A stretch of DNA of 37,618 nt from the IMG/VR virus record IMGVR_UViG_3300045988_076875, positions 1 through 37,618 of that record. One strand, written 5' to 3'. Position numbers and translations under genes: made by a program. Positions 4,739-37,618 of the stretch are shown piece after piece (within the stretch, counting starts at the first letter, position 1; each line of letters opens with the position of its first letter). This DNA is from a virus. The notes beneath the pieces are model-generated. The model did not search any database, was not told the DNA's origin, and worked only from the letters and a program-made list of their open reading frames with translations.

Positions 4739-5653
4739 ATGAATTTAGAGTTAAGCATGATTCCTAAGAGCGGAGTCATTTCTACAAATTTTGAAGAAAT
4801 CAAGGAAAAACTTGAGACAGAAATGTCTACATATAAGACGATGAGAGTAACTGTAGACAATAAAAAAGAAGCAAAAGAAGATATGGCAGATCTTCGTAAG
4901 CTCAAGAAAAAACTCAATAATCGCAAGAAGGAAGTTAAAGAAGAGTATATGAAACCATATCTTGAGATGGAGGATGGCGTAAAGCAACTTATCAGTATCA
5001 TTGATGGAGCAATTAACTTTTTGGATGGACAAGTTGCGGAGCTGGAAGAACAGCGTGTGCTTGAGAGAAAGGCAGAAATTACAAAAGTTTATGATGAACT
5101 TGTAGAAGAGGAACTTTTGGATTACATGCCAATGGAGCGAATCTGGAATAACAAATGGACTAATGCATCTACGACTATGAAATCAATCAGGGAAGACATT
5201 ACCGGATATGCTACAAAGGTTAGAACGGACATTGCAACTATCAAGGCTATGCAGTCAGACAAGACGGAACAGGCATTGAACTACTATATGGAGACGAATG
5301 ACCTTGCATCTTCTATACAAATGATTACTCGCTATGAGCAGGAAAAGGCGAACATCTTAAAGAAAAAAGAACAGGAAGAGAAGAAGAGACGCGAAAAGGA
5401 ACTTGAGAAAGAGCGAGAGCGCGTAAGAGAAGAGGAAAGAAGACGCATCCAGGAAGAGGAAGAAATTAAAGCAGAGGCAGCAAGAAAAGCTATCAGTCAG
5501 GTGAAAACGGTTGATGAAGAAAAGGCTGCGGAACTTGCCACGGAAGATTCTAAGACTGTAGTATTCACGGTTAAGGCAACTGATGAAGAACTGGAAGAGA
5601 TTGAAATGGCATTAACTTCCCTTGGGGTCTACTTTGAAAGGAAAGATGTGTAA
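4739..5653 (+). CDS. DUF1351-like phage protein, a common partner of ssDNA-annealing proteins
   Basis: The N-terminus 'ISTNFEEIKEKLETEMSTYKTMRVTVDNKKEAKEDMADLRKLKKKLNNRKKEVKEEYMKPY' and the charged coiled coil look like this family as I remember it. It sits directly upstream of the ERF-like gene. Confidence 0.6.
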   Translation: MNLELSMIPKSGVISTNFEEIKEKLETEMSTYKTMRVTVDNKKEAKEDMADLRKLKKKLNNRKKEVKEEYMKPYLEMEDGVKQLISIIDGAINFLDGQVAELEEQRVLERKAEITKVYDELVEEELLDYMPMERIWNNKWTNASTTMKSIREDITGYATKVRTDIATIKAMQSDKTEQALNYYMETNDLASSIQMITRYEQEKANILKKKEQEEKKRREKELEKERERVREEERRRIQEEEEIKAEAARKAISQVKTVDEEKAAELATEDSKTVVFTVKATDEELEEIEMALTSLGVYFERKDV

Positions 5654-6279
5654 TGAGCGAAAACGTTCACATTCAAGACAAGCTGGCAGATATTCAGCGA
5701 AAGATGAATGTTCCAAAATCCCAGTATAACAAATTTGGAAACTATAATTACAGAAATGCCGAGGATATTCTGTCGGAATTTAAGAAATATTCCTCTGAAT
5801 ATGGCTTGTGTTTAACTATCAATGACGAAGTCCTTGAAATCGGCGGACGTATATATGTGCGTGCTACGGCTACCTTGAAGAGTGGAGCGGAAAGCATTAG
5901 TATATCTGGTTATGCCAGAGAAGCCGAGAAACAAAAAGGAATGGATGAAGCCCAGATCACAGGAGCAGCATCTTCTTATGCAAGGAAATATGCATTGAAT
6001 GGAATGTTCCTCCTTGATGATGTAAAAGACCCGGATACAAATGAATTCGCTGATCAGCAAGGAAGAAAAAATGGAGATGGGCAGAAAAATACATCTGGAA
6101 ATACAAAGATTAATCAAAGTCATATCAATTCTTTACGGAGCATGTTTCAAAACAAGGGTATTGATGAGAGCAAGGTTCTGATTGCCTATAAAATTGAAAA
6201 AATAGAGGACTTGACAATATCTCAGTACAAAGGAATCTTTAACAACCAGAAAGAAATGAAAGAAAGGTACGGGGTATAA
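5653..6279 (+). CDS. ERF-family single-strand annealing protein
   Basis: 'KSQYNKFGNYNYRNAEDIL' and 'MDEAQITGAASSYARKYALNGMFLLDD' are typical ERF motifs. Confidence 0.7.
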   Translation: MSENVHIQDKLADIQRKMNVPKSQYNKFGNYNYRNAEDILSEFKKYSSEYGLCLTINDEVLEIGGRIYVRATATLKSGAESISISGYAREAEKQKGMDEAQITGAASSYARKYALNGMFLLDDVKDPDTNEFADQQGRKNGDGQKNTSGNTKINQSHINSLRSMFQNKGIDESKVLIAYKIEKIEDLTISQYKGIFNNQKEMKERYGV

Positions 6280-24733: not shown

Positions 24734-24777
24734 GCACATGTGAGCCGTTGAGCCGTGCTATCAGAAAGGATGATAGT

Positions 24778-27567
24778 ATGGCAGACGGTTATTTGAATTT
24801 TGATACCAAGATAAATGAAAAAGGTTTTAATGAGGGCGTTAGTAAGATCAGCAAGATTGCCACCACAGGTTTAGGTGTAGCGGTTGGCAATGCGATGACC
24901 AAGGTAACTGGAAAAGTCGGTGGGATTGGTACCGCGGCCATTAAAGTCGGAATGACATTTGAAGCAGAAATGTCGAAAGTGTCTGCCATATCTGGAGCGA
25001 CGGGTGATGAGTTGTCATCTCTGACAGATAAGGCAAAAGAGATGGGAGCCAAGACTAAGTTCTCAGCCACAGAATCAGCGCAGGCTATGGAATACATGGC
25101 TATGGCAGGCTGGAAAACCGCGGACATGCTCAATGGTATTGAGGGTATCATGAACTTGGCGGCTGCTTCCGGAGAGAATCTTGCGACAACTTCTGATATC
25201 GTAACTGATGCGTTAACGGCATTTGGATTGTCGGCGCAGGATTCTACGCATTTTGCCGATGTTCTGGCGGCAGCATCATCTAATGCAAATACGAATGTTT
25301 CCATGATGGGAGAGACATTCAAGTATGTTGCACCTGTGGCTGGAGCGTTAGGATTCAGTGTTGAAGATTGTGGCGTGGCCATTGGATTGATGGCGAATTC
25401 CGGAATCAAGGCAGGACAGGCAGGTACTTCTCTGAGACAGATGTTGAGTAGACTGACGAAGCCTACAAAAGAAGTACAGACCGCAATGAATACGTTAGGC
25501 CTGTCGTTAACGGATTCAGTAGGAAATGTGAAATCCCTGGATACCGTTATGTCAGATCTTCGTAGTGGATTCAGTGGTCTGTCAAAGGCAGAACAGACAC
25601 AGATAGCAACGTCTCTTGCGGGACAGGAGGCAATGTCTGGACTCCTTGCTATTGTCAATGCATCAGATGAAGACTTCAACAAGTTAAAGGATTCCATCTA
25701 CAATGCAGATGGCGCTGCAGCTGAAATGGCTACAACAATGCAGGATAACCTTGCTGGCCAGATTACAATTTTAAAATCTGGGCTGGAAGGACTCGGAATT
25801 TCAATCTATGAATCTGTTGAGGTCCCATTAAAAAATCTTGCTTCTGTTGGCGTTAAGGCTATATCTGACTTAAATGAAGCATATGCATCAGGAGGCTTTG
25901 CTGGATTCATCAATGAAATTGGAAATAAAGTTCCGATGCTTAAAAGCTTTACAGATGCAATTGCCGGTTTTGTCGAAAAAACAAAAGGAATGTCCACAGA
26001 TGAGCTAATGAATCTTGGTAAATCGACCGGGGTATTGGTCGGTGCAGTCCCAGCATTTTCGCTGATTGGCAAGAGTGCCGGAACATTTTCTGATATTCTT
26101 GGTGGACTTGGAGATGTCACAGGAGGAGCGATTACTGCAATCGGTAAGTTTCCGGACGGATTAAAAAATGCCAAGATAGCAATTACTGGATTTGGTGGAA
26201 GTCTAAAGAATTTAGGCAGTTCAATTGTTGGTCCATTTCAAGTATTAACGCCGAAGCTTAACAGTGTTATCGGAAAGACGTTCTCTTTTTTGCCAACTAA
26301 GATTTCCGGATACGTTGGGAAGATTGGTCCTGCAGTAGCCGGAAAATTTCCTAAAATTACATCCGCATTTCAAGATTTTGGTGGGTACATCGGAGCCTGG
26401 GGAGGACAGATAGGAACGGCATTCCAGGGAGTCCTTGGAAAAGTAGCCGGATTCATGCCCGCATTTGCAAATCTTATGGGATTTGGGGCTGTACTCGGAG
26501 TTGTAGCCGTGGGGCTTGGCTTATTATACAGCCAGTTCGGTACACAGATAGACCAGATCCTGCTTATGATGCAGACTAAGGGACCGGAGGTTATCACCAA
26601 TTTCTGTAATGGAATTGTAGCAGCGTTGCCAAATCTAATCGCACAGGGTGCATCCATGCTAAATAGCCTTATGCTTGCAATTACGGCAAACTTGCCAGCA
26701 ATCATTCAGGGCGGTATTGCAATTGTGTCCACCTTGATTACCGGAATTGCACAACAATTACCAACATTGATTCCGACAGCACTTATGATGATCGTGACGC
26801 TGGTTGGTTCGTTGCTGTCTAACGTCGGTCAGTTGGTAGATGCAGGTATTAATCTATTGGTGGGACTGGCTCAGGGAGTGGTGAATGCACTTCCACAGCT
26901 AATTAATAAGGCGCCGACGATTATCGGGCAGTTAGCAACAGCAATTATTTCTAATCTGCCGAAGATTTTGCTTGCCGGAATTAAGATCATAACAATTCTA
27001 GGAACCGGACTTATCCAGGCAGTGCCACAGCTTATTAGTAAGATTCCATCGATTATCAGCCAAGTAAAGAACGCATTTACAAGTGTTGACTGGGGTGGTG
27101 TTGGAAGGAACATTATCAGTGGAATCGCAAACGGCCTCAAGGGTGCCGCAGGAGCAATTGTAGAAGCTGCCAAAGGTGCAGCGGAAAGCGCACTGAATGC
27201 GGCCAAGAATTTCCTTGGTATCCATTCCCCGTCACGTGTATTCCGTGATCAGGTTGGAAAGATGATGGCTCTTGGAATGGGAATCGGATTTGAGCGGAAT
27301 ATTCCAGTCAAGTCCATGAGTACCGGAGTTCAGAGGGCAGTAGCTGGATTACAGAAATCCGTAGACATTGCACTGTCTGCAAGAACTTCTGATAAGACTG
27401 TAGGAGGTGTGAAGAGTATGCCGGGATTCGATAATAATGATATTGATTATGACAGGCTGGAAAAAATTCAAATGAAAGCAGCGGATAAGCTTGCGAAACG
27501 TCCGATATTCCTTGATACGAAACGGATAGACACACCATTACCGGAAGGAGCGGTACCTGTATGGTAA
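24778..27567 (+). CDS. Tape measure protein
   Basis: About 930 aa, Gly/Ala/Ile-rich with helical repeats. ATG after gaaaggatgatagt. Confidence 0.9.
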   Translation: MADGYLNFDTKINEKGFNEGVSKISKIATTGLGVAVGNAMTKVTGKVGGIGTAAIKVGMTFEAEMSKVSAISGATGDELSSLTDKAKEMGAKTKFSATESAQAMEYMAMAGWKTADMLNGIEGIMNLAAASGENLATTSDIVTDALTAFGLSAQDSTHFADVLAAASSNANTNVSMMGETFKYVAPVAGALGFSVEDCGVAIGLMANSGIKAGQAGTSLRQMLSRLTKPTKEVQTAMNTLGLSLTDSVGNVKSLDTVMSDLRSGFSGLSKAEQTQIATSLAGQEAMSGLLAIVNASDEDFNKLKDSIYNADGAAAEMATTMQDNLAGQITILKSGLEGLGISIYESVEVPLKNLASVGVKAISDLNEAYASGGFAGFINEIGNKVPMLKSFTDAIAGFVEKTKGMSTDELMNLGKSTGVLVGAVPAFSLIGKSAGTFSDILGGLGDVTGGAITAIGKFPDGLKNAKIAITGFGGSLKNLGSSIVGPFQVLTPKLNSVIGKTFSFLPTKISGYVGKIGPAVAGKFPKITSAFQDFGGYIGAWGGQIGTAFQGVLGKVAGFMPAFANLMGFGAVLGVVAVGLGLLYSQFGTQIDQILLMMQTKGPEVITNFCNGIVAALPNLIAQGASMLNSLMLAITANLPAIIQGGIAIVSTLITGIAQQLPTLIPTALMMIVTLVGSLLSNVGQLVDAGINLLVGLAQGVVNALPQLINKAPTIIGQLATAIISNLPKILLAGIKIITILGTGLIQAVPQLISKIPSIISQVKNAFTSVDWGGVGRNIISGIANGLKGAAGAIVEAAKGAAESALNAAKNFLGIHSPSRVFRDQVGKMMALGMGIGFERNIPVKSMSTGVQRAVAGLQKSVDIALSARTSDKTVGGVKSMPGFDNNDIDYDRLEKIQMKAADKLAKRPIFLDTKRIDTPLPEGAVPVW

Positions 27568-28346
27568 AAGCATATTATAAAAATAGTAAAGGAGAGGTGC
27601 TTTGGTTGACCAGGGCGCCTTTTCGTACAATCGATGCAGACTGGTTTGACAGTACGTGGAAAGAGAGCGACAGCGGATATGAGAAAACTGTGACACTGGA
27701 TGTATTTGGAAAGAGAGAAGAGTTCATACAGAACATGGAGATACTGTATAAAATCATTTCTGTTGATGCTGAAACGGGCAATTACGGACGTTTGTATGTC
27801 AATGATACATTTCTTCCGTGTCAGATTTATACAACCAAGAAAACAGGATGGAAAGGGTATGTGTATACCGAAGTAGAGCTTACCTTCCTTGCTCCGGAAT
27901 TGTCCTGGATCACAATCCTGGATAAAAGATTTTATCCACAGATTAAGCCAGCGCCAGACAGTGGGTTGGATTTTTCAGCAGACATTCCATTTGATTTTAC
28001 AAATGAGAAACGCGGATCCAGTTCATTTGAAATCAATCATATTATTCCGTCGGATTTTGAGATGATTGTTTACGGTCCATGCATCAATCCGAAGGTGCTT
28101 ATTAATGGATATCCATATGAAATCTTAACCACGTTAGAAAGTAATGAATATCTGATTCTTAATACCGCAGAACAGACGATTACGAAGTATCTGTCTAATG
28201 GCACGACAGATAACCTGTTTAACGTAAGAGGATATGATTATTCAGTTTTTGAAAAGATTCCACCGGGGCTTATAAATGTGAACTGGAGCGGAGACTTTGG
28301 AATAGATCTATATGTTTTTCTGAAGCGGAAGGAGGCAGCATGGTAA
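27561..28346 (+). CDS. Distal tail protein (Dit)
   Basis: It follows the tape measure with a small overlap; size is typical. Confidence 0.65.
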   Translation: MVKAYYKNSKGEVLWLTRAPFRTIDADWFDSTWKESDSGYEKTVTLDVFGKREEFIQNMEILYKIISVDAETGNYGRLYVNDTFLPCQIYTTKKTGWKGYVYTEVELTFLAPELSWITILDKRFYPQIKPAPDSGLDFSADIPFDFTNEKRGSSSFEINHIIPSDFEMIVYGPCINPKVLINGYPYEILTTLESNEYLILNTAEQTITKYLSNGTTDNLFNVRGYDYSVFEKIPPGLINVNWSGDFGIDLYVFLKRKEAAW

Positions 28347-29341
28347 TACTGGCTACCAAAGAGCGGGAGCTCGGGACAGCACCGCTGAAAAAAGCAAATT
28401 GTTCCTTTGATGTGAATGGAAATAAGATATTTTCGGTAAAGATTGCCAGGTGTTATTTGACAGACGAAATGACATTCGGGAATATGGTATATATTCCAGA
28501 TACAGAGTTTGGTGGAATTATTGGAAAGGTTCTTACCAGCACGACATTGGATTATGTAGAACTGAAAGGGTATACGTGGCGGGGAAGATTGGAGCAAAAG
28601 ATCATATCTCCGCCAGCTGGAAGTGATTACAAGATTGTGTCTGGAGAATTAAATGCAGTGCTTAAGTCGCTTATTGAACCGGAATATGACGGACTTTTTA
28701 TTGTGTCAAGCAAGGATACGGGAATATCGGTCAATAATTATCAATTCGACAGATACTGTACTCTGCTAGATGGCGTCACAAAGATGCTGAAAAGTAAAGG
28801 TTGCAGGCTTGATATCCAACACAGGAGAGAACAAGGCGTTCCAGGATATGTGCTTATCAGAGCAGTTCCAATTGAAGATTATTCTGATCAAATCGAACTG
28901 TCCAAGGATTGTGGGTTGAATTACACAATGGAAGACATCCGGGATGGAGTGAATCATTTGATTGTAACCGGCAAGGGAGAATTGAAAGACAGAAATGTTT
29001 TCCACTTGTATGTCTGGCCAGATGGAACTATCAAGAAGATGCAATATTATAAAGGGCTGGACGAGATATCTCAAGTGTACGAAAATACATCAACTGAGAC
29101 AGATCAACTGGAAGAACAATCAGTTAAGAAATTGCAGGAGATTATGAACAAAAAAATATTTAGTATGGATGTTGAGAAACTTGGAATTGATGTGCATATT
29201 GGAGATGTAGTAGGCGGCCGTGATTATCTGACCGGTATGTACGGAGCAAAGCCAGTTGAAAATATCATTTGCAGTATTACGGCCGGAGTTGTGTCAAAAG
29301 AATATGAATTGGAAGGAGAAAATGATAATGGAAATAGTTAG
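28340..29341 (+). CDS. Tail-associated baseplate protein (Tal/Gp37-like)
   Basis: Position after Dit; 333 aa. Confidence 0.5.
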   Translation: MVILATKERELGTAPLKKANCSFDVNGNKIFSVKIARCYLTDEMTFGNMVYIPDTEFGGIIGKVLTSTTLDYVELKGYTWRGRLEQKIISPPAGSDYKIVSGELNAVLKSLIEPEYDGLFIVSSKDTGISVNNYQFDRYCTLLDGVTKMLKSKGCRLDIQHRREQGVPGYVLIRAVPIEDYSDQIELSKDCGLNYTMEDIRDGVNHLIVTGKGELKDRNVFHLYVWPDGTIKKMQYYKGLDEISQVYENTSTETDQLEEQSVKKLQEIMNKKIFSMDVEKLGIDVHIGDVVGGRDYLTGMYGAKPVENIICSITAGVVSKEYELEGENDNGNS

Positions 29342-30152
29342 CGGAAGAATCGGAAAACCTCATGTGACGAGTCAACAGTTTCGCCAACTCATAGAGGGGA
29401 CCGTGGGACAAGAGAGCTGCATATTGACATCTGGAGAAAATTTAGAACCAGAGCTTGCATCTAATAATTCCTTGAAAATACGTAGCGGAATGTTAGCTCA
29501 TCATGGAAACATTTCCAGCGTGAAGATTGGAACATATGACGCGGTGAACCTTAGCAATGGCAGCCAGGGAATGAAGCGTATCGACCTTGTTGTGTGCCGA
29601 TACACCAGAAATGCTGAAACAGAAGTTGAAAGCTGCAATTGGGTTGTGATTATGGGAACACCTGTTTCGTCAAATCCTGTAGCGCCAACGTATACAGTTG
29701 GAAATTTACAGGAGGGCGACCTTGTAGATGACTGCCCGATATTCGAGGTGCATTACGATGGAATTAATGTGACAGAAGTCAAGAAATTAGTGTCTGTTGT
29801 GTCCAACCTTACTGAATTAAATAGCAAAATAATAACTACTGATACCGGAACGTGCATTAAACACGCAAATGGGATTATGGAACAATATCTAAAAGCCAAA
29901 GTTATGACAAAAGTTTTTTCTGCATGGGGAAGTTGTTATTACGCAAGCGTACCGGCAATACCATACATCGAACCATTCAAAACGGTTGTTGATGCTGATG
30001 CACGGATAGACGCAGAGGGGCAGGCATGGACTATGGGTATTGACAATGGAACACTTAAGCAATCGCCGAGCGCATATGCAATGCGCCCTAGTTCACCAGG
30101 AGGTGCACTATTGGTTACAGTGCGTATACGTGCTATCGGAACATGGAAATAA
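29322..30152 (+). CDS. Tail fibre / receptor-binding protein: constant N-terminal part plus the currently expressed C-terminal cassette c0
   Basis: ATG at 29322 or 29328 after ggaaggag. The C-terminus 'CIKHANGIMEQY...VRIRAIGTWK' looks like a tail-fibre tip. Recombination site A lies at 29812-29832. Confidence 0.7.
   Translation: MIMEIVSGRIGKPHVTSQQFRQLIEGTVGQESCILTSGENLEPELASNNSLKIRSGMLAHHGNISSVKIGTYDAVNLSNGSQGMKRIDLVVCRYTRNAETEVESCNWVVIMGTPVSSNPVAPTYTVGNLQEGDLVDDCPIFEVHYDGINVTEVKKLVSVVSNLTELNSKIITTDTGTCIKHANGIMEQYLKAKVMTKVFSAWGSCYYASVPAIPYIEPFKTVVDADARIDAEGQAWTMGIDNGTLKQSPSAYAMRPSSPGGALLVTVRIRAIGTWK
29812..29832 (+). repeat. Inversion site A (ctgaattaaatagcaaaataa) inside the tail-fibre gene
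   Basis: It matches the 16-nt left part of sites B, C and D at 14/16, and matches site C at AAATAGCAAAATAA. The AAT AGC codons (Asn-Ser, 29820-29825) are in the gene's frame. Confidence 0.7.
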
Positions 30153-30175
30153 TTGCTTATGTGATTGGATACTAA

Positions 30176-30520
30176 TTATTTCCACGTACCAAATGCATGC
30201 CAAGATACCCATATATCTATGTTTTTTGATGTGCTAGAAGAATAAATCCATACTTGGAATAGCTCTGTACCAAGCCCGTTTTCCGGTACGGTCGCCCACG
30301 GTGCACATACACCTCTTGCTGTTACAATTGGAGTCACGGCACTCAATGATTTCGCGGGCAAAGCGATATTAAATTTACCATCATAATAATTCCAATTATC
30401 TGGAGATGATATATTAATTTTGCCGATATATGTGTCATTCCACATTTCCAGCGTACCATCTCCGTATTTGCGCCAGTATCCATTGGCATTATGGCCAGAG
30501 TCCACAATGTTATTGCTATT
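30176..30520 (-). other. Silent tail-fibre C-terminal cassette c1 (no start codon, TAA TAA immediately upstream)
   Basis: Open from AAT AGC (30520-30515) to the stop. 'NANGYWRKYGDGTLEMW...WHAFGTWK' ends in GTWK like c0. Confidence 0.75.
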
Positions 30521-30528
30521 TTATTAAG
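30510..30528 (-). repeat. Inversion site B (cttaataaaatagcaataa on the minus strand)
   Basis: Identical 19-mer to site D; inverted relative to sites A and C. Confidence 0.75.
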
Positions 30529-30590
30529 CAACGAATTGTTGCATCATATGAATTTCCTACATGCTACCATAAAGCAAAAAGGAGATCGAT

Positions 30591-31580
30591 ATGGAGCAAC
30601 GAATCATGGAAGTGTTAAGGAGAATGCAACCAGTCTTGGAGGACGAGGAACTCCGGGAGCTTAAGAATGTGCTGCACATGGTATTCGCTGGGTGCGACGT
30701 CGCACAAAAGACAGAGGTACAATGTGTGGATGATTCCTGGAGGATTGACCTGGAAGATTACTTAATGTCTAAGGCATTGGAGGGCAAGAGTGCTGATACG
30801 GTTAATCGGTATCGATATGAGCTGACAAGATTGTTATCTTACATCCATAAGCCGGTAGCAGAGATTACAGACGGGGACATATCAAGTTACATGAGAGCCT
30901 ACAAGAATATCCGGGAAGTCAAGAATAGCACACTCAAGGGAGTACGTGCAGTGTACAGTAGCTTTTTCGTGTGGCTCAGAGACAGAGATCGGGTAAGGCG
31001 AAATCCGATGGTACTGGTGGAATCAATCAAGGTGGAAAAGCGCGTCAAGCGCCCGTTCACAGACACAGAACGTGAGCAATTACTTCGGAGTTGCGCCACT
31101 ATCAGGGACAAGGCTATGATGGAATTTTTATATTCCACGGCGGTCAGAGTGTCGGAGCTTGCAAGTCTTAATAGAGGCGATATCCGTTGGAGCAGTAAGG
31201 ATCTTATCGTATATGGAAAAGGCGGAAAAGAAAGGACGGTGTACCTAAATGAACGCACGAACATGTATTTGCAGGAATACCTGCAGAGCAGAACCGATAA
31301 CAATCCAGCATTATTTGTAGGACTTAAGAGTCCACACAATCGGTTATCGAAGGCTGGAATAGAAGATATGATAAGACGTACCGGAGAACGTGCAGGAGTC
31401 GAAAAGGCTCATCCACACAGATTTCGAGGTACGTCCATTACTAATGCCATTAACAGAGGCATGCCGTTACAGGAAGCTTCTATCATGGCAGGACACGCTA
31501 AAACTGAGACGACAATGCTGTACTGCAACGTTGATCAGGAATCGGTGAAATATCACCACAAGAAATATTTAAGCGCATAG
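30591..31580 (+). CDS. XerC/D-like tyrosine recombinase (putative shufflon invertase)
   Basis: Catalytic pattern R ('TAVRVSEL'), K ('GKGGKER'), HxxR ('HPHRFRGT'), H ('AGHAKTETT'), Y ('MLYCNV'). It sits between sites B and C. Confidence 0.85.
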   Translation: MEQRIMEVLRRMQPVLEDEELRELKNVLHMVFAGCDVAQKTEVQCVDDSWRIDLEDYLMSKALEGKSADTVNRYRYELTRLLSYIHKPVAEITDGDISSYMRAYKNIREVKNSTLKGVRAVYSSFFVWLRDRDRVRRNPMVLVESIKVEKRVKRPFTDTEREQLLRSCATIRDKAMMEFLYSTAVRVSELASLNRGDIRWSSKDLIVYGKGGKERTVYLNERTNMYLQEYLQSRTDNNPALFVGLKSPHNRLSKAGIEDMIRRTGERAGVEKAHPHRFRGTSITNAINRGMPLQEASIMAGHAKTETTMLYCNVDQESVKYHHKKYLSA

Positions 31581-31608
31581 CTTTTTTACCACAATTCACA
31601 CTCACTCA

Positions 31609-31636
31609 CACTCGGCAATGGTCGGGTGCTTTTGTT
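31609..31636 (+). terminator. Probable terminator after the recombinase gene
   Basis: cactcgg/gtcgggtg stem containing G-U pairs, followed by CTTTTGTT. Confidence 0.4.
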
Positions 31637-31683
31637 ATGTGCTTTTATATAGTAACCCGAAAACAAGATTGAAAGGAGGAGTA

Positions 31684-31704
31684 CTTAATAAAATAGCAAA
31701 ATAA
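31684..31704 (+). repeat. Inversion site C (cttaataaaatagcaaaataa)
   Basis: Same orientation as site A. Its extended left arm 31674-31699 is a 25/26 inverted match to 32285-32260. Confidence 0.75.
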
Positions 31705-31985
31705 CAATTCTAAACAAGCCAAATGGAAATGGCAGCGCGCTCAGAGTCTTCGATGCGACTGAAAATCTCATATATGGGTGCTGGCAGAATGGATTATACC
31801 GGTACGGTGGCTACTACGGCAATGGCGCACCGTCTGACTGGGCTGGTATCATGCTGGTGTCTCCAATCTTTCTTAACGGAGAAGTCAGCGGCTATCTTAA
31901 GGTCGCATGGGATATGGGCATGTCGCAGTACATCATGAAAAATAACAAAGATGGCTCCGTATCTCAGGCGTGGACAAAAATGTAA
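31692..31985 (+). other. Silent tail-fibre C-terminal cassette c3 (start-less, 97 codons, absent from the ORF track)
   Basis: Hand translation from AAT AGC gives 'NSKITILNKPNGNGSALRVFDATENLIYGCWQNGLYRYGGYYGNGAPSDWAGIMLVSPIFLNGEVSGYLKVAWDMGMSQYIMKNNKDGSVSQAWTKM*'. TAA TAA lies immediately upstream. Confidence 0.7.
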
Positions 31986-32267
31986 TTACACATATATCAC
32001 CAGTAGATTGAGCGTAGTTGTTCCACCCAATCCAGAATAATAATTACTATTGCACCTAACGTACACTTCTGACCAGTCTGGCAATGCTTGGATAGCAACT
32101 TTTCCGTAGACTAAGCCATTGTTAGAATTAGTTGTTGATCCAGGGATAGCAGAGATTATTTTTCCACCGTTTTTTATTATTTGATTTACTTCTGAGGAAA
32201 AGTCAACAAGTAAATTCGTATCGGTCGCTACAGTTTTGCTGAAGCATTCCACTTTTTTATTGCTATT
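31986..32267 (-). other. Silent tail-fibre C-terminal cassette c2 (no start codon, TAA TAA upstream)
   Basis: Open from AAT AGC (32267-32262): 'NSNKKVECFSKTVATDTNLLVDF...TLNLLVIYV*'. Its stop abuts the c3 stop (TAATTA). Confidence 0.7.
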
Positions 32268-32275
32268 TTATTAAG
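32257..32275 (-). repeat. Inversion site D (cttaataaaatagcaataa on the minus strand)
   Basis: Identical 19-mer to site B. Confidence 0.75.
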
Positions 32276-32300
32276 TATTCCTCCTGGAAAGGAGTAACAA

Positions 32301-32672
32301 TTGAAGATTATTTTCAATGACGCAACGGAACTGGTTGTCCAGTCTGCAACAATTCGCGGAGACGGAGGACTACTAATCAAAACGATTTCTGATACAGAAG
32401 CGAATTTGAAAAACATGTTCCAGGATCAGACAAAAACCAAGAAGATGACCGTGACAGAACGGGAGTCCACATTGGGGGAGTATGAGAATTACACCAATAT
32501 GGACGCTATCGTGAAGTATACGGCTGGAATTATCGGTGTGATTCTCTACAAAGTTGGCGAGACACCAGCAGAAAAAATGGAGGCTTTAGCATCAGAGAAT
32601 GCTGGACTGAAAAAGACTGTTGATATGCTCCAGGAATGCATTCTTGAAATGTCAGAGTTGGTATATCAATAA
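32301..32672 (+). CDS. Hypothetical tail-module protein
   Basis: TTG after ggaaaggagtaaca. It lies directly downstream of site D. Confidence 0.5.
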   Translation: MKIIFNDATELVVQSATIRGDGGLLIKTISDTEANLKNMFQDQTKTKKMTVTERESTLGEYENYTNMDAIVKYTAGIIGVILYKVGETPAEKMEALASENAGLKKTVDMLQECILEMSELVYQ

Positions 32673-32882: not shown

Positions 32883-33773
32883 ATGGCAGTAAAAACAGTA
32901 CAATATATAATTGATGGTCAGACATATAATCTGACATTTGATGCATCTACAGGGGAGTATAAAGCAACAGTCCCGGCGCCTAGCAAATCCAGTTACTCAC
33001 AAGATGGTCATAAATATGGGGGCTCTGTAATAGCTACAGATGATGCCGGAAACTCAACTACAATAAATCAAAGTGATGCTACTTTAGGAGCAAATCTGTT
33101 ACTTCGCGTCCTTGAAAAAGTCGCACCAACACTTGCTTTCACATACCCGACCGCTGGCGCGTATATTACAAACGCAACTCCAGCTATTAGGTTTAAGGTG
33201 ACAGATAATGACTCTGGGGTAAATCCAGATACAATCGTTATCAAAGTTGATGGCGCAAAGGTAACAACCTCATTTACAAAAACAGCAGTCACAGGTGGTT
33301 ACGAGTGTTCCTACACTCCAGGAACAGCATTGGCGGATGGTGCGCATACTATTTCAATCGAAGCATCTGATTTTGATGGAAACGCTGCAACAGCTAAGAC
33401 AGTCACATTTACAATTGATACAATTCCACCGACACTTACACTTACAGCTCCAGCAGATGGGCTTATCACAAATAAATCCACTCTGGTTGTATCTGGTAAA
33501 ACAGACGATGTTACATCTAAACCTGTAACAGTTACAGTCAATGGAACGGCGGTTGCAGTTAACTCGGATGGTACATTCTCAAAAGAGATTACGCTTGTCA
33601 ATGGTTCTAACACAATTACCGTTGTTGCAAAAGACAAAGCCGGAAAGACTACAACTGTAACACGTAAGGTAACACTTGATACCGGTGCACCTGTATTCAA
33701 GGGTATTACTCTTACACCGAATCCGATTGACTGCGGTAAGACATTCATTATCTCTGTTAAGGTGACAGACTAA
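32883..33773 (+). CDS. Ig-like-domain repeat protein (tail decoration or adhesin)
   Basis: Repeated beta-rich modules 'TFTIDTIPPTLTLTAPADG...VVSGKTDD...VTVNGTAVAVNSDGTFSKEITLVNGSNTITVVAKDKAGK'. Confidence 0.6.
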   Translation: MAVKTVQYIIDGQTYNLTFDASTGEYKATVPAPSKSSYSQDGHKYGGSVIATDDAGNSTTINQSDATLGANLLLRVLEKVAPTLAFTYPTAGAYITNATPAIRFKVTDNDSGVNPDTIVIKVDGAKVTTSFTKTAVTGGYECSYTPGTALADGAHTISIEASDFDGNAATAKTVTFTIDTIPPTLTLTAPADGLITNKSTLVVSGKTDDVTSKPVTVTVNGTAVAVNSDGTFSKEITLVNGSNTITVVAKDKAGKTTTVTRKVTLDTGAPVFKGITLTPNPIDCGKTFIISVKVTD

Positions 33774-34899: not shown

Positions 34900-35129
34900 T
34901 GATGTTTAAAAATTGTGTATTTAAAGTATCGGTAGATACAAAGAAGTGGATCAAAAAAGCTGGAATCAGAGCAGTGAAGACGGTAGCGCAGACATTTATT
35001 GCTACGATCGGAACAGCATCCTACTTAGGAGCTGTCGATTGGAAGCTGGTTGTGTCAGCATCCGTATTAGCAGGTGTGCTTTCGGTGGCAACATCTGTAG
35101 CAGGATTACCAGAGGTTGAGGGCGAGTAA
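34899..35129 (+). CDS. Holin
   Basis: 'RAVKTVAQTFIATIGTASYLGAVDWKLVVSASVLAGVLSVATSVAGLPE'. Upstream of the endolysin. Confidence 0.65.
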   Translation: MMFKNCVFKVSVDTKKWIKKAGIRAVKTVAQTFIATIGTASYLGAVDWKLVVSASVLAGVLSVATSVAGLPEVEGE

Positions 35130-35157
35130 TCGTCCTCTTATTGATAGGAGTGATATT

Positions 35158-35955
35158 ATGGCAGTAAGAATTGGAAGCGCACGTATTAATGAGAAGGGCA
35201 CCACCACCGGGGGAAAAGCCGGAGATCAGACCGGTGGAGAAGTGTCTATACAGAATTACTATCTGCACAGAAAAGGTTGGTACGTAGCAAGACCGAAAGA
35301 CCCAACTGTAGCAGAGAAGATTGCACAGGCAATGGAAGCAGCGTGCTACAATAATCACATCGGTTATTGCCAGGCACACAGAGACAGCCTTAGAAAGATT
35401 GCGGTTAAGTATAACTATAATCTCAGCAAGGTCAATGTTGATGTGGAGGTAGATTGCTCTGCACTGGTCAGAGTATGCTGCTTATATGCCGGAATACAGG
35501 TTGGAGATTTCAACACAGCGTCAGAGCTAGAAACCTTGCGAAAGACAGGAGCGTTCGAAATCCTGAAAGATGATAAGCGTTGCAAGGAAAGTACATATCT
35601 GAAACGAGGGGATATTCTTGTTACACGCACAAAGGGACATACAGTTGTAGCCCTGGACAATGGATCTGGAGTGACTTCCGCTTCAAAGAGCACCAGAGCT
35701 TATGTCGTCGGACAAGTCTATGCAACACAGGTGGACGACCTGAGCGTCCGAACCGGTCCGGGAACCAATAATCCGGAAAAATCTTATGCGGAGTTATCCA
35801 GTAATGCACAGCAACACGCGCACGATAACGGGAGACTCAAGAAAGGCACTCGCGTAACCTGCAAGGACGTCCGCAAGAACGGTAGTGACATCTGGATCAA
35901 GATTCCAAGCGGCTGGATTGCTGCATATTATGGTGGAAAGAAGTATGTAGGATAG
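35158..35955 (+). CDS. Endolysin: Cys/His peptidase-like N-terminal domain plus a C-terminal SH3b-like domain
   Basis: 'DCSALVRVCC...GDILVTRTKGHTV' gives a Cys...His arrangement. The C-terminus 'VRTGPGTNN...GTRVTCKDVRKNGSDIWIKIPSGWIAAYY' is SH3-like. Confidence 0.7.
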   Translation: MAVRIGSARINEKGTTTGGKAGDQTGGEVSIQNYYLHRKGWYVARPKDPTVAEKIAQAMEAACYNNHIGYCQAHRDSLRKIAVKYNYNLSKVNVDVEVDCSALVRVCCLYAGIQVGDFNTASELETLRKTGAFEILKDDKRCKESTYLKRGDILVTRTKGHTVVALDNGSGVTSASKSTRAYVVGQVYATQVDDLSVRTGPGTNNPEKSYAELSSNAQQHAHDNGRLKKGTRVTCKDVRKNGSDIWIKIPSGWIAAYYGGKKYVG

Positions 35956-36078: not shown

Positions 36079-37566
36079 TTACTGATATAAGAAATAATAG
36101 ATTTTCAGAGAATCTTGTTCTCGGTTGTAGACAATTTTGTCCACGATCTGTTTTAATGCTTCGTTCTTTTGGGCTGCAGTAAAAGAATCTGAGACTAGGA
36201 TATCATAGACACCCTGCACTCTTAACAGCATGTTGGCAGCAGGATCCGGCGTATCTTTTGGAGCATTGTCTTCCAGTTCTTTTAATTGTTCTTCCAAGTG
36301 TATGCGTTCTTTCTGAAGCAGTGCTTTATTCGCTTTATATTCCTCAAGAGTATCAATTCCCTCACGGTAAGAAGCTTTGATTCGTTCTTCTTTTCCGGAA
36401 AGACTTTCCAGACGACTGGTTAATATATTTTTCTCATTAGAGACTTCTATCGGCTGACGTTCTTTTAAGGTGTAAGAAATGTTGCCGGAGCTTAGAGATT
36501 CCTTGACGCAGGCAAGGACCTCTTTCTCCAGGACAAGGGAACTGATTCCATGTGGTTTCTCACATTTTCCTTTATGATATCCATAACAAGAGAAGTAGGA
36601 GTATTTCTCACCGTTCGCACGTTTCATGGTGGCAGCAGTCAATGTGCGTCCACATGCAGGACATTTCAGTAATCCGGAGAGCCAGTGTTTATATGTAGAA
36701 GAGGGACGTTTTCCGGAAGGTCTGTAGGTTGCTTCGAATCGTTTTTGTGCTGCCTCAAATAATTCCTTTGTAATAATTGCCGGCTGTTGTCCTTCTGTGA
36801 CGATCCATTCATCTTTATCCTTGATTCTGTTCGTACTGTTTTCTGTCCGGTTCCACCGAATCATACCGCAGTAGGAAGGATTCTGAATGATGTACTCAAT
36901 AGATCTCCGCTCAAATGGTTTGCCCTGTGAGGTCTTAAGCCCAAGATTGTTCAAGCGTCTTGCAATATCAAAAAATCCGATGCCTTCATTCGCATACCAG
37001 TTAAATATCATGCGTATAATTTCAGCTTCTTCAGGAACAATCATCGGAGGCTTGCCATGCTCCATGACCTTGTATCCGAGTGGCGGACGTGCCTGGTATG
37101 CTCCACGGGTCGCATTTTCTTTCATGCCCCGGAATACCTCACCGGAAAGACGGATAGAGTAGTATTCGTCCATCCACTCAATAATACGCTCAATCAGAGA
37201 GCCGAAAGGATTATCTGAAAGAGGTTCGGAGATGCTCACGACTTCTACGTTGTGTTGCTTCTTGAGAAGAGACTTGTAGACAATGGATTCTTCCTGGTTC
37301 CTGGCAAATCGTGAGAACTTCCATACCAGGATCAGATCTACCGGGTGATCAGAACCCTTTGCAAGTCCGACCATCTCCTGGAAGCCTGGACGCTTTTCAG
37401 CTTTCCGGCCGGAGATTCCAAGGTCAGAGAAAATCTTAAGGATTACAATATTGTTCCTGGTAGCATACTCCCGGAGAAGATTCTCCTGAGAATCCGGAGA
37501 GATTTCTTCCTGATCGTGCGTGGATACACGGATATAGCCATAGGCATATCTTAATTCACTCATCAT
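36079..37566 (-). CDS. Large serine recombinase (phage integrase)
   Basis: 'YGYIRVSTHDQEE' is the catalytic-Ser resolvase motif. It also has a recombinase domain, a zinc ribbon 'CPACGRTL...CYGYHKGKC', and a C-terminal coiled coil. ATG ATG follows aaggaaggtgat. Confidence 0.9.
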   Translation of the reverse strand: MMSELRYAYGYIRVSTHDQEEISPDSQENLLREYATRNNIVILKIFSDLGISGRKAEKRPGFQEMVGLAKGSDHPVDLILVWKFSRFARNQEESIVYKSLLKKQHNVEVVSISEPLSDNPFGSLIERIIEWMDEYYSIRLSGEVFRGMKENATRGAYQARPPLGYKVMEHGKPPMIVPEEAEIIRMIFNWYANEGIGFFDIARRLNNLGLKTSQGKPFERRSIEYIIQNPSYCGMIRWNRTENSTNRIKDKDEWIVTEGQQPAIITKELFEAAQKRFEATYRPSGKRPSSTYKHWLSGLLKCPACGRTLTAATMKRANGEKYSYFSCYGYHKGKCEKPHGISSLVLEKEVLACVKESLSSGNISYTLKERQPIEVSNEKNILTSRLESLSGKEERIKASYREGIDTLEEYKANKALLQKERIHLEEQLKELEDNAPKDTPDPAANMLLRVQGVYDILVSDSFTAAQKNEALKQIVDKIVYNREQDSLKIYYFLYQ

Positions 37567-37618
37567 ATCACCTTCCTTAGTATATATGTGCAACGTCGCA
37601 CAAAAATGGGTATAAAAA
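37564..37618. repeat. Terminal exact direct repeat, copy 2
   Basis: Same 55-mer as nt 1-55. It contains the integrase start codon (complement of cat at 37564-37566, equal to nt 1-3). Confidence 0.9.

Follow-up and report, generated by a model that had tools for sequence, protein, structure and literature searches.

A probable tyrosine-recombinase shufflon with four alternative tips for the receptor-binding protein of a siphovirus

Toward the end of its tail module, the viral genome in IMG/VR record IMGVR_UViG_3300045988_076875 carries a tail-fibre gene followed by three open cassettes that have no start codon, a tyrosine recombinase gene and, distributed among them, four copies of one short site. 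The question raised by this locus is whether these parts form a working switch of the fibre protein, and what other genomes say about it. The whole record of 37,618 nt was analysed and is referred to here as the window; it looks like a complete temperate siphovirus genome. The original prediction for this DNA, made without database searches, described a shufflon that could place any of four C-terminal domains on the tail-fibre protein. Comparison with related genomes leads to the same reading: with a probability of roughly 0.85, the locus is a shufflon that would swap the C-terminal 93-114 residues of a siphovirus receptor-binding protein (RBP), with four alternative tips available. The features of the switch, in order along the window, are the following.

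29328..30152, + strand: tail-fibre/receptor-binding gene, expressed, 274 aa; constant region residues 1-164 (29328-29819), c0 residues 165-274 (29820-30152)
29812..29832, + strand: site A, ctgaattaaatagcaaaataa; inside the expressed gene; core 29819-29827; left half TGAATT encodes Glu-Leu
30176..30520, - strand: silent cassette c1, 114 aa; frame from the sequence; matches phrog_2712, tail fibre C-terminus (E 2.4e-10)
30510..30528, - strand: site B, cttaataaaatagcaataa; core 30513-30521 (+ strand numbering)
30591..31580, + strand: Xer-like tyrosine recombinase, 329 aa, predicted invertase; PF00589 (E 1.7e-33) and SAM-like core-binding domains; bracketed by inverted sites B and C
31684..31704, + strand: site C; core 31691-31699
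31692..31985, + strand: silent cassette c3, 97 aa; fused form in relatives is P0108
31986..32267, - strand: silent cassette c2, 93 aa; fused form in a relative is P0100
32257..32275, - strand: site D; core 32260-32268 (+ strand numbering)

All four sites share the 9-bp core AAATAGCAA. A longer 16-mer, CTTAATAAAATAGCAA, is identical in sites B, C, and D, and site A (CTGAATTAAATAGCAA) matches it at 14 of 16 positions, its two mismatches turning the in-frame stops TAA TAA into GAA TTA (Glu-Leu). As a test against chance, a 15-mer search allowing up to three mismatches was applied to the whole window and to 100 shuffles. This search returned three exact matches and one match with two mismatches, all within 29.8-32.3 kb, and every remaining match in the window carries three mismatches. 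The total of 10 matches compares with 3.2 +/- 1.9 in the shuffles, of which none (0/100) reached 10 or more. Sites C and D additionally form an inverted repeat of 31 nt with 90% complementarity. The left flanks of these two sites (31674-31683 for C, 32276-32285 for D) read AGGAGGA(G/A)TAC, a sequence resembling a ribosome-binding site with no usable start codon after it. Because both sites hold this sequence, the conserved left arm of C and D is 11 nt longer than that of A and B, and the extra 11 nt may belong to the binding site of the recombinase.

The reading frames are arranged in the same way at each site. The expressed tip c0 (29820-30152, + strand, 110 aa) is open from AAT AGC to its stop codon, as are c1, c2, and c3, each of which has in-frame TAA TAA ahead and no start codon at its site. 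The silent cassettes are untranslatable in place because the left half of their site reads TAA TAA. An open run of at least 93 codons begins at 5-11% of window positions chosen at random, which puts three open cassettes by chance at ~1e-4; the comparative evidence described below is much stronger. No two of the four tips are related in sequence: global identity is 18-25%, and BLAST gives no significant match among them. When cassettes are compared between loci, synonymous codon changes equal or outnumber non-synonymous ones, in silent and expressed copies alike, and consequently the cassettes are taken to be maintained as coding sequence. Where c0 and c1 meet tail to tail (30131-30197), there is a 24-nt imperfect inverted repeat (79% complementary, arms 19 nt apart), which arises because both tips end in ...GTWK and a stop codon, and which could fold as a two-way hairpin between the cassettes.

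The embedded gene encodes a protein with catalytic and SAM-like core-binding domains and no arm-binding domain in the domain search. Alignment of this protein to XerD fills all of the Arg, Lys, His-x-x-Arg, His, and Tyr positions, the predicted catalytic Tyr lying in ...TTMLYCNV.... The nearest NCBIfam models all score below their cut-offs: XerA at 207.5 bits (cut-off 220), XerC at 151.8 bits (335), and XerD at 143 bits (330). Judged by its sequence, the enzyme is Xer-like in fold and organisation and an equivalog of none of XerA, XerC, and XerD. The family carries the label 'integrase' in PHROGs.

In the proposed mechanism, the constant part of the fibre protein (residues 1-164) ends in ...LTEL, site A lies at the next codons, Asn-Ser, and the Xer-like recombinase would join pairs of inverted sites within the core. 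Inversion between A and B would place c1 behind the constant region. Inversion between A and D would place c2 there and also flip the recombinase gene, inversion between C and D followed by inversion between A and D would bring c3 into position, and inversion between B and C would flip the recombinase gene alone. Every product would be an in-frame fusion of the form ...LTEL-NS-cassette. That the embedded recombinase catalyses inversion between inverted sites to give such fusions can be proposed with high confidence, and that switching is frequent enough to produce mixed populations with moderate confidence. The original prediction had given the positions of the four sites with the common 16-nt left part, the AAT AGC register with open cassettes preceded by TAA TAA and without starts, the inversions leading to c1, c2, and c3, and the XerC/D-like nature of the embedded gene; the sequence check and shuffles, the frames read from the sequence, the arithmetic of the scheme, and the PF00589, Xer-type assignment with complete catalytic residues agree with it on each of these points.

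The comparative evidence begins with the fibre proteins of relatives. A homologue search with the fibre protein found 4063 proteins, and tips were inspected among the best 120 of these. Many of the 120 have an N-terminus that is 95-98% identical and a C-terminus that is unrelated, and at least 12 unrelated tip families occur on one constant region of at least 95% identity. Protein P0100 (257 aa), encoded in locus L001, consists of the constant region and c2 (100% identity), while protein P0108 (261 aa), encoded in loci L002-L007, consists of the constant region and c3 (92% identity). A tip of the c1 family is fused to the constant region in 21 proteins among the best 120 and in locus L020. In every fusion, the junction is residue 165, the Asn of the Asn-Ser pair that follows ...LTEL.

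The point of exchange was located by tabulating the junctions at 56 sites of 25 close loci. In this table, c2 is found behind the left flanks of A, B, C, and D, c3 and c1 each behind those of A, B, and C, and c0 behind those of A, C, and D; the cassettes joined to the four left flanks in public assemblies show 78-100% amino-acid identity. The flank bases themselves (TGAATT for A; TTAATA for B, C, and D) never travel with a cassette, and the TGAATT half remains on the constant region in every relative, whichever cassette comes next. Flank-specific bases stop just 5' of AAATAGCAA and cassette-specific bases begin straight after ...GCAA, so the exchange is confined to these 9 bp. A length of 9 bp is in keeping with a tyrosine-recombinase overlap region to which a few bases are added.

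Whole segments are also rearranged in relatives. Upstream of the switch, locus L002 and the window share 98% identity; in L002, c3 (forward) and c2 (reverse) lie to the left of the recombinase and a c1-like cassette (forward) and another cassette (reverse) to its right. The segments are thereby swapped, and three successive inversions of the window (A x D, then B x C, then A x B) would yield this order. Between L114 and the window, the C-D segment is cleanly inverted; its two copies are 96% identical, set in collinear flanks of 94% and 99.7% identity. In L020, the first cassette pair is followed immediately by the C-side flank of the recombinase segment, which there lies on the opposite strand, and in L127 the recombinase is opposite in direction to the fibre gene; because of these two loci, inversions that include the recombinase are considered to occur as well. 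The contig of L005 holds both a junction of the B flank with c2 and a junction of the C flank with c2, the only hint of switching within one contig. Contig ends near the switch were considered as a sign of heterogeneity and rejected, as the prophage ends a few kb downstream and switch-less relatives break there too. The shufflon reading of the original prediction is strengthened by both the cassettes fused at residue 165 elsewhere and the segments inverted or swapped in close relatives. A search of relatives for the constant region joined to c1, c2, or c3 had been suggested as a check, and fusions of c2, c3, and the c1 family are what this search found. The contrary outcome named by that prediction, c1-c3 as separate genes with their own starts, is not what was found: in the window no start lies at the site, and in relatives the families or close alleles are fused.

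The fibre gene follows directly on genes for tape measure, Dit, and Tal-like proteins, in keeping with the tail-fibre assignment that had been made from the DNA alone. These and the other features outside the switch proper are listed here.

24748..27567, + strand: tape measure protein; PF10145 PhageMin_Tail (E 2.4e-59); tail module upstream of the switch
27561..28346, + strand: distal tail protein (Dit-like); phrog_33 'distal tail protein Dit' (E 3e-10)
28340..29341, + strand: minor tail protein (Tal-like); phrog_538 'minor tail protein' (E 1e-69); directly 5' of the fibre gene
31609..31638, + strand: terminator-like hairpin after the recombinase gene; weak evidence, count of such sites not above chance
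32301..32672, + strand: conserved gene g123, 123 aa; phrog_12931; in nearly all relatives, the switch is bounded by it on the right
36079..37593, - strand: large serine recombinase, 504 aa, likely integrase; PF00239, PF07508, and PF13408 (Resolvase, Recombinase, zinc-ribbon); at the genome end, after the endolysin gene

The fibre protein matches phrog_9994, phrog_25635, and phrog_13141 over residues 1-185/198. Searches of the fibre and cassettes against Pfam and NCBIfam gave zero matches, and a profile search with the fibre against PDB sequences gave no significant match. With a 30-sequence alignment as input, AlphaFold2 modelled the native fibre at a mean pLDDT of 54, with the constant region below 50. 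The c0 domain is the sole well-modelled part (pLDDT 70-88) and forms a beta-sandwich. Foldseek comparison of the model with the PDB returned cupins and Vip3/Cry toxins at TM 0.1-0.2, which is uninformative. A receptor-binding role is nevertheless suggested by the position of the gene, the match of c1 to a PHROG tail-fibre family, and homology to the RBP of the Rin type discussed below. By precedent and gene position, the four tips may bind different receptors and set the host range.

Among the other genes, the window encodes terminase, a minor capsid protein, and an endolysin (35116-35955). A promoter and terminator scan of the locus yielded counts no higher than in shuffles, with the exception of the one hairpin after the recombinase gene. 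The best NCBIfam matches of the product of 36079-37593 are large serine recombinases of the CcrB and XisF types. The role of phage integrase was considered for the tyrosine recombinase and rejected in view of this gene; because a large serine recombinase is present, the tyrosine recombinase is not needed for integration. The phage holds one recombinase of each chemistry, tyrosine and serine, with separate jobs. On the 3' side of the switch (32883-33773, + strand), there is a gene whose 296-aa product contains several Ig-like domains (Big_13, Big_7, Glucodextran_B), aligns to the middle (2202-2489 of 3825) of a very long PHROG profile and may be a second tail adhesion or decoration protein.

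The host was approached through the constant region. A blastn search against GenBank phages gave a sole match, one partial unannotated faecal contig. Homologues of the constant region at 59-88% identity are present in genomes of Dorea species, [Ruminococcus] torques, and Candidatus Mediterraneibacter, as well as in Lachnoclostridium and Clostridium sp. Marseille-P3244. Because related constant regions sit in those genomes, the host is most likely a Dorea/Mediterraneibacter-like member of the human-gut Lachnospiraceae.

A scan of IMG/VR with the recombinase recovered 47 loci encoding relatives at 54-98% identity. In most of those that extend far enough, the layout is const-A[S]B-rec-C[S]D-g123, and g123 lies directly 3' of the last site in most loci that reach past the switch. 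The constant regions of the 47 loci range from 25% to 96% identity to that of the window; consequently, the switch module is either older than the fibre lineages or mobile between them. The core changes with the lineage of the recombinase, and it does so at all four sites of a locus together. Core AAATAGCAA accompanies recombinases at least 80% identical to that of the window, AAATGGCAA those that are 72% identical (L132, L143), and AAATAGGAA one that is 67% identical (L141). Such concerted change would be expected of sites that need to match each other and the enzyme. Fibre gene and recombinase run in the same direction in ~36 loci and in opposite directions in 1-3 (L127, L020, L116). The adjacent-pair inversions A x B and C x D are probably the common ones.

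Some loci contain the fibre gene and one cassette pair followed by g123, with no recombinase or second pair (A[S]D loci: L001, L007, L019, L031-L033), and those of L001, L019, and L031-L033 have the core of the window. Recombination of direct sites, A with C or B with D, could have deleted the rest; alternatively, an assembler may have taken a shortcut through a mixed population.

Several observations weigh against a shufflon that exchanges receptor-binding tips. The isomers were taken from separate assemblies. Some of these are metagenomic, a kind of assembly that can be chimeric at repeats. In locus L018 (6320-6400), 66 nt separate two sites whose left flanks differ, and in L131 a copy of g123 stands at either side of the switch, the two in opposite orientations; both structures are probably assembly artefacts from co-existing isomers. 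The exact c1 allele of the window has been met only in silent form; a search with c1 alone returned only short open-reading-frame calls of silent copies, and the exact allele was not found fused. The sites lack a clear second, inverted binding arm. Finally, the receptor-binding role of the fibre has no structural support, the N-terminal part being poorly modelled by AlphaFold and the Foldseek matches uninformative.

The alternative that survives best, although it is itself unlikely, is that cassettes were exchanged in the past and that the locus is now effectively static, with the arrangements in the databases reflecting fixed differences between lineages. The origin of all isomers in different samples or assemblies would be explained in this way, as would the existence of recombinase-less A[S]D forms and the rarity of some inversions, the recombinase being co-directional in ~36 loci and inverted in only 1-3. 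A static locus is more difficult to reconcile with a recombinase that has an intact frame and complete catalytic residues, with cores that are identical at four sites and co-vary with the recombinase lineage, and with silent cassettes that are open and under purifying selection. In addition, L005 holds c2 behind both the B and the C flank, and segments of 96-100% identity are found in both orientations between near-identical flanks.

It is even less probable that the arrangements arose by homologous recombination between co-infecting phages, or as assembly chimeras at short repeats, with no dedicated recombinase involved. Metagenome assemblers can mis-join repeats; the closely spaced sites of L018 and the doubled g123 of L131 are structures of the kind that mis-joining would leave, and L007 and L019 are possible path artefacts. 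However, the breakpoints fall within the same 9 bp at 56 of 56 sites, and the recombinase is conserved inside the locus. Loci L021, L023, L025, and L114, whose identifiers resemble isolate-genome records, also differ in arrangement. RecA-type exchange is inefficient over a shared core of 9-16 bp, which counts against homologous recombination in particular. The weakest alternative, that the tyrosine recombinase serves integration or the resolution of genome multimers and merely adjoins the cassettes, draws on its closest characterised relatives (XerA, XerC, and XerD) and its PHROGs label, and it is scarcely credible for an enzyme that lacks an arm-binding domain, that lies site-bracketed between two cassette pairs in most of the 47 loci, and that shares the genome with a large serine integrase.

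Simpler versions of a fibre switch are present in other loci. Loci L038-L043 and L095 (IMG/VR; constant region 74% identical) contain a two-cassette switch at ~5480-6234. A 755-bp segment, 100% identical and bounded by the inverted repeat AAATAAGGATTTGTCCAATAA, is inverted between L038-L040 and L041-L043, and the flanks on either side show 96-99.8% identity. A recombinase homologue was not found in the DNA of L038-L043 and L095, up to ~5 kb on each side; consequently, the enzyme acting on L038-L043 would be encoded elsewhere or supplied in trans. Loci L010, L071, and L074 are likewise two-cassette and recombinase-less, with constant regions that are 72-73% identical and inverted sites ACTTACTAAATGGCAA. 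Their core, TAAATGGCAA, resembles that of recombinase loci of the L132/L143 type (CTGAATTAAATGGCAA), which hints that the recombinase of a related prophage may serve them in trans. In L145 (2150-2870) and L146 (ENA ERZ27295351 and ERZ28640526), a pair consisting of c1 (forward) and a c0-like cassette (reverse) stands directly after an Amidase_3 endolysin gene at the prophage end and adjoins host radical-SAM and MutS genes. The c1 copy of this pair is 98% identical to that of the window, the flanking sites are TTAAATAGCAA and CTAAATAGCAA, and the 2 kb upstream contain lysis-module genes and no tail-fibre gene. A further proposal, tentative and on the doubtful side, is that the shufflon enzyme flips its own gene, bracketed by B and C, relative to late tail transcription, maybe limiting itself in this way, and that it acts in trans on the many related recombinase-less prophages whose fibre locus holds an invertible two-cassette segment and a similar core. 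Hints in its favour are the rare isomers with an inverted recombinase gene, the A[S]D loci that have the core of the window, the sites of L010, L071, and L074, and the clean inversion among L038-L043. If the trans reading were true, co-resident Lachnospiraceae prophages would draw on a single tip-switching service and on a common stock of at least 12 tip families.

The closest precedent for the proposed shufflon is the Rin system of Bifidobacterium breve and Bifidobacterium longum prophages (Mavrich et al. 2018), which uses a tyrosine recombinase without an arm-binding domain (PMC6109161). Rin acts on 11-bp rix sites, TTCCCTAACCC, and its RBP has a constant N-terminus of 168 residues and tips of 95-100 residues; Rin isomers were seen in lysogen and induced-virion reads, and the system was named by its authors the first phage-encoded tyrosine invertase (PMC6109161). 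The same system occurs in Eggerthella lenta prophages (PMC8778435). Since Rin has already been published, the principle of a tail shufflon driven by a tyrosine recombinase is not new. The likeness to Rin extends to a phage tyrosine recombinase without an arm-binding domain beside the receptor-binding gene, a constant N-terminus of similar length (164 aa here), tips of similar length (93-114 aa here), and a short asymmetric site at the start of each cassette. Alternative arrangements are broken at the sites in both systems, here between assemblies and for Rin in reads.

The constant regions of the two systems are also homologous, and crossover occurs at the same protein position. Bifidobacterium phage PMBT6 has a Rin-like locus in which TTCCGTAACCC occurs in three direct copies and one inverted, with a tyrosine recombinase at one end. 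Its RBP aligns to the constant region of the window over residues 3-164 with 23% identity (E 9e-12), and both proteins match phrog_9994, phrog_13141, and phrog_25635. The alignment stops at the crossover site, where the rix-like repeats of PMBT6 begin at codon 167. In contrast, a BLASTP comparison of the recombinases gave E 0.018 over 37 residues round the catalytic motif only, so that the enzyme of the window has no meaningful similarity to the Rin-like enzyme; this comparison used the PMBT6 protein as a stand-in for the published Bb423phi1 Rin sequence. The systems differ further in their sites, the core here being AAATAGCAA within CTTAATAAAATAGCAA, in layout, as the recombinase here is central, between head-to-head cassette pairs, and invertible whereas that of Rin is at one end, and in their hosts, which are Lachnospiraceae (Bacillota) here and Actinobacteria for Rin. 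The homologue of the constant region in Clostridium phage phiCs5676-1 was examined as a possible cultured model; there is no inverted repeat at its junction, and the phage was rejected for this purpose.

Other inversion systems are more distant. The R64/IncI shufflon consists of Rci, 19-bp sfx sites, and pilV, and its site is asymmetric, with one side conserved. It resembles the locus in having a tyrosine recombinase, several invertible segments, one N-terminus with alternative C-termini, and one-sided conservation of the site. The target here is a phage RBP rather than a conjugative pilus adhesin, however, the site is unrelated to sfx, and the recombinase gene lies inside the invertible region. 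Only Xer and integron-integrase NCBIfam models were matched here and no Rci model, and the two enzymes are set apart by these models. Mu Gin, P1 Cin, and p15B Min are small serine invertases that act with an enhancer and Fis, and Min has multiple crossover sites. They also exchange the C-terminal part of a phage tail fibre by inversion, and differ in chemistry and site type. No resolvase/invertase-type gene is present in or near 29.3-32.7 kb, the sole serine recombinase of the window being the 504-aa integrase. The comparison drawn in the original prediction holds for the likeness to tyrosine-recombinase shufflons; the tyrosine recombinase in place of a serine invertase, which it set out as a contrast, is not new in itself, and Rin, the closest precedent, had been missed.

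Two further sources cover related ground. A 2026 preprint on BV01-like phages of Phocaeicola vulgatus reports a recombinase-flanked, multi-cassette shufflon over the tail fibre's distal end, with all configurations in reads (PMC13596623). It is likewise a phage-encoded multi-cassette tail-fibre shufflon with a recombinase, and differs by its description in having a Bacteroidota host, a 10-bp motif, TGGGAGAACT, three cassettes, and variants set by the position of the stop codon (PMC13596623). A systematic survey of programmed inversions found tail fibre genes to be enriched targets and does not describe the present system (PMC9881135). A literature search found no description for phages of Lachnospiraceae or other Firmicutes; it left subscription journals mostly uncovered, and absence from the literature is therefore unproven.

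The system appears to be the counterpart of Rin in Lachnospiraceae phages, with a homologous RBP scaffold and with a different recombinase, core, and layout, the recombinase lying in the middle. It is more a sound, useful addition than a surprise, and the self-inverting recombinase and its possible trans action are most worth following up. For annotation, 'integrase' is the wrong label for such recombinases, as is 'hypothetical proteins' for the silent cassettes. Together, the 9-bp core and the 329-aa recombinase make a compact candidate for a tool with which tips could be swapped programmably in engineered phages. The finding of one RBP scaffold, equipped at the same residue with two unrelated tyrosine recombinases in two phyla, points to convergent or modular evolution. 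Dorea, Mediterraneibacter, and other Lachnospiraceae abound as commensals of the human gut, and the way in which their phages locate a host is poorly known. The switch appears to be widespread in gut metagenomes, with 4063 fibre homologues, 47 recombinase contigs, and at least 12 tip families, and because of this it probably shapes both the host range of these phages and the difficulty of assembling their prophages.

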